Below are positions 1-1,683 of a stretch of DNA of 5,160 nt, one piece after another. The stretch lies in the IMG/VR virus record IMGVR_UViG_2778261570_000022, one strand, 5' to 3'. A program made the translations under genes and the position numbers. This DNA is from a virus (lineage: Duplodnaviria > Heunggongvirae > Uroviricota > Caudoviricetes). How positions within the stretch are numbered: the stretch's first letter is position 1; each line of letters opens with the position of its first letter. The notes under the pieces are model-generated. The model was not told the origin of the DNA, did no database searches, and saw only the letters and a program-made list of their open reading frames with translations.

Positions 1-1683
1 GATGCCGGAAACATTGACGGCAGCATCCATCGCTGGGCAAAAAATGAAGTTATCGACAACGACCGCGAAGACTGGAAGCGTATCTCGGCATCAATGCGCA
101 AACAGCCCGATGCCCTTCGCTACGACCGCCAGACTATTTTTGGCCTTGTCCGTGAACGTCCGATCGACATTCACAAAGACCCTGTGGCACTGAACAAATA
201 CATTACTGAATACCTGACTACAAAGGGCGTGTTTGAAGATGAAGGAACAAATCAGAGCGCAACTGATACTCTCTCGTCGCCAGTACCAGAAACTGATGCA
301 GTGGAAACGGCAATTCCGGACAACGAAAAAACCGAATGCAAAGTGGAAGTCGAACCATCTGTAGAGCGTGAGGGGCCGTTCTACTTCCTCTTCACCGACA
401 AGGATGGCGAAAAATACGGTCGCGCAAATAAACTTTCTGGTCTGGATAAGGCGCTGTCTGCTGGGGCTACTGAAATCACGAAAGAAGAATATTTTGCCCG
501 CAAAAACGGTACATACTCAGGTTCACAACAAAATACTGGTGCATCTGACACGATCGCACAACCAGAGCCGGTAAAAGTTACCGCTGACGAAGTAAACAAA
601 ATTATGCAGGCAGCCAATATCAGCCAGCCTGACGCCAATAAGTTGCTTGCTGTATCACGTGGTGAATTTGTTGCAGGGATTAGCGACCCGAATGATCCGA
701 AATGGGTGAAGGGGATTGAAACCCGCGATTCAGTGAGCCAGAACCAACAAGAATCGGAACAGAACGGCCAGAAAGCGGAACAAAACAGCCCAAATGCGTT
801 ACAAAACGAGCCAGAAACGAAACAGCCTGAACCAGTGGCGCAACAGGAAGTGGAAAAAGTCTGCACCGCCTGCGGTCAGAGCGGTGGCGGCAACTGCCCT
901 GATTGTGGTGCGGTGATGGGTGACGCAACATACCAGGAAATATTCGATGGAGAGAATCAGCCTGAAGTTCAGGAAAATGATCCGGAGGAAATGGAAGGCA
1001 CTGCGCATCAGCACAAGGAGAACACTGGCGGCAATCAGCATCATGCCAGCGATAGTGAAACTGGCGAGGCGTCAGATCCCTTAATTAAGGCAAACGGTCA
1101 TCATAATCTCACATCCACCAGCAGAGCGGGGATTCATCTGATGCTCGACCTTGAAACCATGGGAAAAAATCCCGATGCTCCGATTATCTCAATAGGTGCA
1201 ATATTTTTCGATCCGCAAACCGGAGATATGGGACCGGAATTTAGTAAGACTATCGATCTGGAAACTGCTGGCGGAGTCATTGATCGGGACACCATTAAAT
1301 GGTGGCTTAAACAATCACGCGAAGCGCAATCTGCCATTATGACCGATGAAATCCCGTTAGATGATGCACTGTTACAATTGCGGGAATTTATCGACGAAAA
1401 CTCCGGTGAATTTTTTGTTCAGGTCTGGGGTAATGGGGCCAACTTCGACAACGTGATTTTACGCCGTTCATACGAACGACAGGGTATCCCCTGCCCATGG
1501 CGCTACTGCAACGATCGCGATGTACGCACAATCGTTGAGCTGGGGAAAGCCATAGACTTCGATGCCAGAACGGCTATCCCATTCGAAGGTGAGCGCCATA
1601 ATGCACTTGATGACGCTCGTTACCAGGCAAAATACGTTTCAGCTATCTGGCAAAAACTGATCCCGAGTCAGGCTGATTTTTAA
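1..1683 (+). CDS. Prophage large exonuclease-like protein, 5'-partial; Gln/Glu-rich low-complexity linker, Cys4 zinc-ribbon, C-terminal DEDDh (DnaQ/RNase T-like) 3'-5' exonuclease domain
   Basis: Frame 1 is open from nt 1 to the TAA at 1681-1683. The ORF track starts it at ATG 94, but no stop precedes that and there is no good SD before 94, so the gene probably begins upstream of the window. C-terminal ~180 aa (about nt 1135-1680) carry DEDDh motifs: motif I [9 protein letters not shown], motif II [8 protein letters not shown], motif III [9 protein letters not shown]. Upstream is a Q/E/N-rich acidic linker (about nt 720-1130) with [16 protein letters not shown] (CxxC-x7-CxxC, nt 862-909). It is co-directional with and immediately upstream of xis-int. 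Confidence 0.8.
   Translation, partial: [560 protein letters not shown]

Follow-up and report, generated by a model that had tools for sequence, protein, structure and literature searches.

The DNA analysed here is a stretch of 5,160 nucleotides (nt) from a tailed phage of the Caudoviricetes (IMG/VR record IMGVR_UViG_2778261570_000022), which we call the window. Its left end is occupied by a gene for a fused exonuclease, in which a scaffold homologous to the non-catalytic middle of RecE (exonuclease VIII of the Rac prophage) is followed by a terminal nuclease head with the features of the DEDDh superfamily. This protein is the subject of our analysis. The gene is followed by a DUF4224 gene in the excisionase (xis) position, a tyrosine integrase gene (int) and a tRNA-Ser(cga) gene, beyond which lie mtfA and then a tRNA-Asn gene (Table 1). 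From the order exonuclease, xis, int, tRNA-Ser and mtfA it follows that the window is the left end of a lambdoid prophage inserted at the tRNA-Ser gene beside mtfA. The exonuclease gene is the last long gene of a dicBF-type early-left operon of a Rac/Qin-like lambdoid prophage. The operon order (ydfABC)-dicF-dicB-ydfD-ydfE-xis-int is found in Qin, Tritos, mEp460 and Escherichia coli TUM1881, and in other prophages the gene comes after kil/kilR-ydaE or after an Rrf2-family gene.

Frame 1 runs uninterrupted from the first base of the window to a stop codon at 1681-1683 (560 codons plus stop), and because it is already open at base 1 the protein is cut N-terminally by the window. The missing part could be recovered from homologs, as the initial annotation of this DNA had suggested. 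The full gene has 2472 nt and encodes 823 amino acids (aa) in TUM1881, mEp460 and Tritos, and full-length homologs have 823-824 aa. The window portion corresponds to full-length residues 264-823 and is 100% identical to an 823-aa protein in our collection (P0005), and the 5' 789 nt lie outside the window. Residues 1-256 of the full-length protein are 86% identical to ydfE (b1577) of the K-12 Qin prophage, which IS2 interrupts at aa 256. Judged by this identity up to the IS2 cut, the window gene is ydfE in its intact form, of which K-12 has a pseudogene. Both genes have the same operon position, after dicB-ydfD, but the K-12 copy, cut at aa 256, lacks every part that is present in the window, whereas the window copy is intact over its length. 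Intact orthologs are known as the O157 'exodeoxyribonuclease encoded by CP-933O/P', as TRITO_27 of Tritos and as VUF53467 of mEp460, the latter two with 823 aa and a DNA identity of 90-97%.

The nearest public genome is that of E. coli TUM1881, which is 99.5% identical over window 1-3200. In this strain the exonuclease gene is a pseudogene with a Trp to stop change at the codon that matches window nt 73-75, a codon that is intact in the window. An ATG inside the frame gives a 529-aa open reading frame (ORF; window 94-1683). In PHROGs, the match of phrog_20376 (530 aa) to the full-length protein begins at residue 295, the very Met with which this ORF starts. Since the start of phrog_20376 coincides with an internal Met, some annotations appear to be 3' parts called in copies with an upstream stop.

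Table 1. Features of the window and modules of the encoded protein (positions in window nt; numbering of the 823-aa protein in brackets; pLDDT, predicted local distance difference test score)
Feature	Position	Strand	Basis
ydfE ortholog, 3' 1683 nt of 2472-nt gene	1..1683	+	open frame; identity to P0005; ydfE similarity
YdfE_N, alpha/beta	(full-length 1-205)		pLDDT mostly >93
YdfE_C helical domain, C-terminal part	1..246 (full-length 240-345)	+	pLDDT ~95; aligned to RecE ~278-345; PF27432 precomputed
Acidic linker 1, predicted disordered	253..366	+	pLDDT <50; 38 aa with 10 D+E vs 2 K+R
Small beta/alpha module, not in K-12 RecE	367..516 (full-length 386-435)	+	pLDDT 82-89; two strands and two helices; gap in RecE alignment
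Conserved helix motif, common with RecE 459-487	643..729 (full-length ~474-500)	+	pLDDT 63-76; BLASTP alignment; chimera recombination joint
Q/N/E-rich linker 3, predicted disordered	715..852	+	pLDDT <50; 46 aa with 15 Q+N, 9 D+E
Zinc ribbon CxxC-x7-CxxC, kept in RecE 518-533	862..909 (full-length ~548-569)	+	pLDDT ~70
Acidic His-rich linker 4, predicted disordered; RecE homology ends inside	919..1119	+	alignment; AlphaFold2; composition
Chi site GCTGGTGG inside gene	1115..1122	-	site scan
DEDDh 3'-5' exonuclease domain (Rv2179c-like / DexA family), predicted	1129..1671 (full-length 640-820)	+	Pfam, DexA profile and fold; pLDDT 93-98
DUF4224 gene, excisionase position	1742..1945	+	Pfam PF13986 E 1.9e-15; annotation of related contexts
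Chi site GCTGGTGG	1804..1811	-	site scan
Tyrosine integrase, intact, 360 aa	1945..3027	+	Pfam Phage_integrase; length equals intact gene of strain 382634_2f
tRNA-Ser (cga), prophage/chromosome junction adjoining mtfA	3036..3125	-	ARAGORN; related contexts

A RecE-like scaffold and the heads it carries

The AlphaFold2 model of an identical full-length protein has a mean pLDDT of 76, with confident domains that are split by segments of pLDDT below 50. In this model the protein is built like beads on a string, in which YdfE_N, YdfE_C, the small beta/alpha module, the helix motif and the zinc ribbon are set between acidic disordered linkers and followed by the terminal DEDDh head. YdfE_N and YdfE_C are both matched in the precomputed Pfam annotation of P0005, YdfE_N itself lying outside the window. 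The long Q/E-rich acidic linker seen in the initial annotation was recovered in the composition, since all four linkers are acidic and Q/N-rich, and AlphaFold2 predicts them to be disordered. The zinc ribbon in front of the head was likewise correctly recognised there, and its cysteines are C288-xx-C291-x7-C299-xx-C302 in the numbering of the window protein.

A resemblance to RecE had been suggested in the initial annotation, and alignment of the whole protein to Rac RecE bears it out. In BLASTP, residues 262-625 of the full-length homolog align with residues 278-591 of K-12 RecE at 38% identity (E 6e-60), with near-identity over a 16-residue motif and over the zinc ribbon. The alignment stops at '...ETGE..DP.I', before the PD-(D/E)XK domain of RecE (Pfam DUF3799, RecE 615-850; the domain is also given as 564-866). 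The NCBIfam RecE equivalog PRK09709 is matched in part, over model positions ~439-603 only and with 262 bits against a cutoff of 1269. No PD-(D/E)XK domain was found in the window protein by Pfam, and BLASTP gave no similarity past RecE residue 591. The Exonuc_VIII domain of RecE (PF06630) was not found in the full-length ortholog and is present in the relatives P0123, P0126 and P0136. The window protein and Rac RecE have the non-catalytic middle in common, including the helical domain, the motif and the zinc ribbon, and they occupy the same kind of early-left operon slot. They differ at both ends. Rac RecE ends in a PD-(D/E)XK domain, whereas the window protein ends in a DEDDh domain of opposite expected polarity, and the N-terminus is YdfE_N in the window protein but Exonuc_VIII in RecE and in some members of the family. 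The earlier description of a RecE-like scaffold with a swapped nuclease is fair for the family, since natural proteins with a RecE N-terminus and a DEDDh head exist (such as P0123, below) and the homology ends at the boundary of the RecE nuclease. For the window protein itself it holds in part: only the middle is RecE-like, and its first 258 aa form YdfE_N, which is unrelated.

Relatives numbered 11,625 when 1.84 billion representative proteins were searched exhaustively, and the long ones were analysed by Pfam scan and module-wise BLAST. Two N-terminal modules and two nuclease heads are found in all four combinations. YdfE_N, the middle and a DEDDh head make up the window type, and an Exonuc_VIII N-terminus is joined to the middle and a DEDDh head in P0123, P0126, P0133, P0136, P0137, P0143, P0144 and P0159. 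YdfE_N and the middle are combined with a PD-(D/E)XK domain in P0138, while Exonuc_VIII, the middle and PD-(D/E)XK give RecE itself. Further relatives carry YdfE_N and the middle with other C-termini.

How such combinations arise can be read from the sequence of P0123, a chimera that formed recently in nature. Over the first 277 aa it does not differ from K-12 RecE (100% identity), and its head matches that of the window protein at 97% identity. The gene tracks Rac recE as far as nt ~1460, and from nt ~1470 it tracks the window type. The crossover is placed at aa ~465-490, inside the conserved motif, where the parents are ~90% identical in DNA. All Rac similarity ends at about nt 1820 (aa ~607), at the boundary between linker and head. 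The crossover within the conserved linker indicates that this linker is a joint for homologous recombination between lambdoid phages. The P0123 gene itself (L006:6001-8418, E. coli assembly GCA_039763085.1) lies in a Rac-like prophage (sieB-kilR-ydaE) beside mtfA, like the window's.

A third type of head is found on the YdfE_N/YdfE_C scaffold. It comprises the C-terminal ~265 aa of P0134, P0142, P0147, P0170 and P0208 and carries the motif KKSLTDA.KKALS.LGFSADV.LGLYD. All five members match Pfam Rad52_Rad22 below the threshold (best E 0.0024), and a PDB sequence-profile search with this head gave no match. One gene of this type (L126:5001-7337) lies between a Gam-like gene and a Sipho_Gp157 gene. 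Possibly the third head is an annealase that has become joined to the scaffold, and these proteins may be the 'RecE-2' proteins that a 2025 paper describes as having no nuclease domain.

The head on the scaffold is of one of three kinds: a PD-(D/E)XK nuclease, always followed by recT; a probable Rad52-like annealase, accompanied by a Gam-like gene; or a DEDDh nuclease, which has no recombination partner and stands directly before xis-int. They were brought onto one scaffold by mosaic recombination between phages, which took place in the conserved linker. For the DEDDh-headed genes the label 'exonuclease VIII / RecE' is wrong, since their nuclease has another fold and the opposite expected polarity, and RecT is lacking. 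Natural fusions on one scaffold also give a handle on the function of the RecE N-terminal region, a region that boosts linear-linear recombineering (PMC11611040).

The DEDDh head and its nuclease relatives

By its motifs and its predicted fold the head belongs to the DEDDh superfamily, in agreement with the motifs DLE, NFD and H-x4-D that had been read from the sequence at the outset. The Pfam family Rv2179c-like (PF16473) matches window aa 379-550 with E 5.1e-67 and 225 bits against a cutoff of 27, over profile positions 2-177 of 177, and RNase_T is a weak second match below the threshold. In the numbering of the window protein, the Exo I motif is D383-L-E385 (nt 1147-1155), Exo II is N-F-D483 (nt 1441-1449) and Exo III is H533-x4-D538 (nt 1597-1614). 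The five catalytic residues fall on invariant or nearly invariant columns of a 41-sequence family alignment with relatives of 40-49% identity, and these columns also hold across alignments with relatives of 40-60% identity. The best PDB profile match is DexA of phage T4 (E 6e-22, vs about 1e-5 for DnaQ and Orn), and the catalytic residues of the head align with DexA D7, E9, D119, H186 and D191. An RNase H-like alpha/beta exonuclease fold is borne out by the AlphaFold2 model together with Foldseek. DexA is again the top match (E 8e-9, template modelling score 0.65-0.70), followed by RNase T, REXO2/Orn, ERI, ExoX and ExoI, so that the fold comparison with RNase T and ExoX foreseen in the initial annotation did return both enzymes. 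In a Foldseek search with the full model, nothing besides DEDDh-domain matches appeared in the top 50. From the relatives DexA, EcD and Rv2179c we infer the 3'-5' polarity and the likely substrate of the head. Two of these relatives, DexA and Rv2179c, are dimers.

DexA (exonuclease A; PDB 8KEL/8KEN) belongs to the same DEDDh subfamily and is the best solved relative. It is a 3'-5' DNase that prefers single-stranded DNA (ssDNA) (PMC12153337, Nucleic Acids Research 2025). It differs from the window head in being a stand-alone protein of 227 aa with extra loops, and the two are 24-28% identical. DexA W152 and D169, which are proposed to recognise 5-hydroxymethylcytosine (5hmC), are replaced by Cys and Lys/Ala in the window head according to two alignments, the region of D169 being less certain. 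The E. coli homolog EcD ('HREX', HAK9828821.1) belongs to the same DEDDh family but is likewise a stand-alone protein. It has been tested for activity against T4, cuts only 5hmC DNA and protects against this phage (PMC12153337). With the EcD primers in the supplement of that paper we recovered from viral contigs a 189-aa EcD-like protein that shares 39% identity with the window head. Where DexA has D90, W152 and D169, this protein has Ala78, Trp and Glu, as the paper gives for EcD, whereas the window head has Asp, Cys and Lys/Ala. Since the catalytic residues align but the diagnostic positions differ, the catalytic machinery is common to these proteins and the proposed 5hmC-reading pair is not; the Trp plus acidic residue with which HREX reads 5hmC was not found in the window head in either alignment. 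A 5hmC-specific head was rejected on these residues. We also rejected the idea that EcD is the head domain of the fused protein, as the primers give 'MIDTET...' and the EcD-like protein is encoded by a separate stand-alone gene.

The protection that EcD gives against T4, and its similarity to the head, bring up an anti-phage nuclease of the EcD kind, which would act in superinfection exclusion by degrading incoming, perhaps modified, phage DNA. The neighbourhood of genes linked to exclusion or toxicity (dicB, sieB, kil, hokD) would suit such a role. We regard it as unlikely, because the 5hmC residues are replaced and a PADLOC scan of the full-length protein matched no defence-system model. Furthermore, the gene stands in the early-lytic operon of viable phages, and this operon is repressed in lysogens: the K-12 dicB promoter transcribes dicB, ydfD and ydfE, and DicA represses it (PMC11430063).

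Rv2179c of Mycobacterium tuberculosis, the founder of PF16473 and like DexA and EcD a stand-alone protein, is a 3' exoribonuclease acting on single-stranded overhangs of double-stranded RNA, according to Abendroth 2014 as cited in PMC10534295. The head might accordingly trim RNA 3' ends, for instance those of phage or host transcripts or of the DicF precursor from the same operon. DicF is encoded upstream in Tritos and Qin, in the fold search oligoribonuclease, REXO2 and RNase T come next after DexA, and the name given by PGAP is '3'-5' exoribonuclease'. That name, however, derives from the domain model and not from an assay of this protein. The nearest characterised relatives by sequence and fold, DexA and EcD, are DNases, and the scaffold is otherwise fused to DNA enzymes, namely the PD-(D/E)XK nuclease and the probable annealase. 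A role in RNA trimming is in our view doubtful.

The initial annotation had also considered signal degradation, and an anti-defence factor that breaks down small nucleic-acid signals or molecules used in defence, such as cyclic oligonucleotides or retron msDNA, would fit in general terms with a DEDDh enzyme of the Orn/REXO2 fold class encoded early in a phage operon. Nothing specific speaks for it. The head is closest to DNases that act on polymeric DNA, and in the contexts examined the gene was not seen together with defence systems, which makes this the least probable of the functions discussed here, and a very improbable one.

Genomic context and proposed function

In Rac, recT, ralR and rcbA lie between recE and xis-int, so that the earlier placement of RecE and lambda Exo in the slot immediately upstream of xis-int is not correct. 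In Rac and in one further locus (L007), the PD-(D/E)XK-headed gene overlaps at its 3' end with recT (PF03837, E 2e-36 in L007). Directly downstream of the window gene there is no recT; DUF4224 and int are found instead. In every context examined the DEDDh-headed fused gene stands directly before xis/int, and this holds for three int/xis types and several chromosomal sites. None of the seven annotated DEDDh contexts contains an annealase.

A scan of one genome per bacterial species found 305 relatives of the head, from which 80 loci were kept. Ten of these 80 carry a fused gene of 641-828 aa (in Escherichia, Klebsiella, Kluyvera, Phytobacter, Enterobacter and relatives), and the rest have stand-alone heads of ~180-260 aa or pseudogenes. 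An integrase gene on the same strand starts 179-344 bp 3' of the fused gene in all ten, and within 700 bp in 28 of the 80 loci overall. Between the repressor gene and the fused gene, nine of the ten fused loci have no annealase-sized ORF. The tenth has two extra genes there, one for a DUF6932 protein and one without assignment. Searches with phmmer for RecT (two versions), lambda Bet, Exo, Gam and the RecE nuclease domain gave no match within 8 kb in the 80 loci, annealases of the Erf, Sak and Sak4 types not having been probed. Annealase, Exo and Gam are not annotated in the complete mEp460 genome. The arrangement of a two-component recombinase, a 5'-3' exonuclease with an adjacent single-strand annealing protein, was not seen: the head is of the 3'-5' class and no such protein was found among the types probed (Erf and Sak types not included). 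In the non-Escherichia versions (Klebsiella, Phytobacter and others) a small Rrf2-family regulator gene lies directly upstream of the fused exonuclease gene (L010:5522-5860, L025:5937-6305, L055:5624-5971), in the place of dicB/ydfD or kil.

Stand-alone heads occur in the same place. Gene sb30 of Salmonella phage ST64B (L017:4995-5564) encodes a stand-alone head of 189 aa, 58% identical to the window head, directly before xis-int. The early-left operon of ST64B is related to that of LLS, a 'no Rec module' prototype (PMC12315714). As ST64B carries this stand-alone DEDDh exonuclease, 'Rec-less' phages can still encode the nuclease. Stand-alone heads next to xis-int, together with the crossover in the conserved linker and the frequent pseudogenes, would be compatible with a by-product of lambdoid mosaicism, in which the stand-alone head of xis-int became fused to a decaying recE/ydfE and has little current function. 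We consider this improbable, because fused forms as distant as 48-60% identity still have the scaffold, the complete catalytic pentad and a frame open over 640-850 aa, with three int/xis types, and because the gene is intact in most of the at least 1077 E. coli genomes that carry the region (below) and in viable phages.

The initial expectation of a mechanism other than classical recombination stands in so far as no annealase accompanies the gene, whereas the proposed signal degradation found no support. The same observations bear on a true recombination exonuclease that would replace RecE and work with an unrecognised annealase, either host-encoded or located elsewhere in the phage. The protein occupies the slot of the Rec module and has RecE's scaffold, and the Tritos nuclease has been counted as a Rec-module gene (PMC12315714). 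However, a nuclease of the expected polarity would remove the very 3' tails on which annealases depend, RecT and Bet were not found near the 80 loci, mEp460 has no annotated annealase, and an annealase-sized ORF is absent between repressor and fused gene in nine of ten loci. A hidden annealase partner therefore seems quite improbable to us.

The phages that carry the gene have a published setting. A 2025 paper lists "DnaQ-like 3'-5' nucleases" near int and defines in its Table 1 a class of four phages, with Tritos as prototype, in which the nuclease is present and single-strand annealing protein (SAP), single-strand binding protein (SSB) and anti-RecBCD function are absent, with Chi sites from 7/2 to 21/6 (PMC12315714). 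Tritos carries a gene of the window type, and the main text of the paper neither dissects the RecE-like fusion nor tests its function. A recently defined class of phages without annealase and anti-RecBCD is a setting in which a phage 3'-5' exonuclease could cooperate with host RecBCD.

Chi sites are retained in these phages. The window has two, with 0.11 expected from shuffles, and mEp460 has nine (strands 7/2). To our knowledge, wild-type lambda has no Chi sites. We examined Chi enrichment as strong evidence for a link to RecBCD and found it unconvincing, as the densities are close to those of most E. coli loci examined.

Taken together, the reading we favour, to which we give about even chances, is that the RecE-like scaffold with its DEDDh head is an early-lytic 3'-5' DNA-end exonuclease that works with no phage annealase. 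On induction or infection the operon would be derepressed and the protein made. Like EcD and DexA, the head would degrade nucleic acid from its 3' end, the most probable substrates being ssDNA or 3' tails, while the scaffold probably tethers the head to a partner. The protein would not be one half of a recombinase made of exonuclease and annealase. Since the carrier phages are without annealase and anti-RecBCD and have retained Chi, DNA-end processing for host RecBCD/RecA is the most likely job, and it might be compatible with, or helpful to, host recombination, for example by trimming 3' overhangs. Host 3' exonucleases help to blunt DNA ends so that RecBCD can load. The step of cooperation with RecBCD/RecA is speculative. 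Our ranking of the alternatives puts a defence nuclease like EcD first, then an RNase, a nuclease for recombination whose annealase is hidden, a mosaic largely without function and, last, a signal degrader.

Several points weigh against a DNA-end exonuclease that serves host recombination. Pseudogenised copies are frequent (K-12 ydfE, TUM1881, Shigella L074), which indicates that the gene is dispensable for the lysogen. The Chi density in mEp460 and related loci, ~0.15-0.25 per kb, is near that of most E. coli loci examined, and this closeness to the E. coli background makes the Chi link weak for this phage. 3'-5' exonucleases usually inhibit rather than promote recombination (PMC12315714). 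The phmmer search for partners had a gap at the Erf, Sak and Sak4 types, and an RNA substrate comes into consideration because the founder Rv2179c is an exoribonuclease. Literature searches found no biochemical or genetic study of the function of the fused protein.

A wider proposal goes beyond the DNA-end exonuclease. The RecE/YdfE N-terminal region might serve Rac/Qin-like phages as a general delivery platform for interchangeable DNA-transaction heads, whose DEDDh version trims 3' ends for the formation of concatemers by host RecBCD, Chi and RecA for packaging. We hold this to be unlikely. If it were true, the unexplained N-terminal two-thirds of RecE would have a conserved job that is independent of the head, binding a specific partner or DNA end. 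The DEDDh version would then define an annealase-independent strategy, and a comparison of the three natural fusions would be informative.

Prevalence, annotation and minor observations

As a sequence feature the gene is ordinary. Of 5426 complete E. coli genomes, at least 1077 (about a fifth) contain 80% or more of window 1-3200, and at 90% identity single protein clusters have 18,012 and 23,183 members. The initial annotation had taken the architecture to be unusual, which it is not: few prophage genes of E. coli are as common, and PGAP, Pfam and PHROGs all annotate it. In PHROGs the full-length family is phrog_2082, and the newer Pfam families YdfE_N (PF27430) and YdfE_C (PF27432) together with Rv2179c-like cover the protein. 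Public records name the gene in several ways, and some of these names mislead. In PGAP it is an 'exonuclease' or '3'-5' exoribonuclease (domain-containing protein)', and in older phage records an 'exodeoxyribonuclease VIII'. The family is thus already catalogued as an extremely common E. coli prophage gene, its class was described in 2025, and it is not new. The earlier question of whether this is a well-characterised protein family can be answered in part, since the family is well catalogued and its function is putative.

Four contigs from assemblies of other bacteria (L020, L036, L064 and L085, assigned to a Veillonella parvula metagenome-assembled genome (MAG), an Actinomycetes MAG and Chryseobacterium sp. 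18061) carry heads that are 54-95% identical to that of the window protein. L020 has a whole fused gene, with a head of 95% identity. Most likely they are enterobacterial contigs that entered the public assemblies by contamination or wrong binning.

The integrase gene of TUM1881 is a pseudogene with a frameshift, and the stretch of this strain that matches window 1-3200 is shorter by 13 nt; the window integrase is intact. In related genomes the tRNA-Asn region (window 4093-4199) is present a second time, between yeeN and yeeO at a distance of about 10 kb and with 96% identity, which is an ordinary gene duplication at that chromosomal locus. The match to TUM1881 ends at nt 5105, and the final 55 nt (window 5106-5160) diverge. 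The point of divergence lies within the 5' part of a yeeJ-like frame that runs past the end of the window, and the break at nt 5105 is probably a strain-specific breakpoint or insertion.

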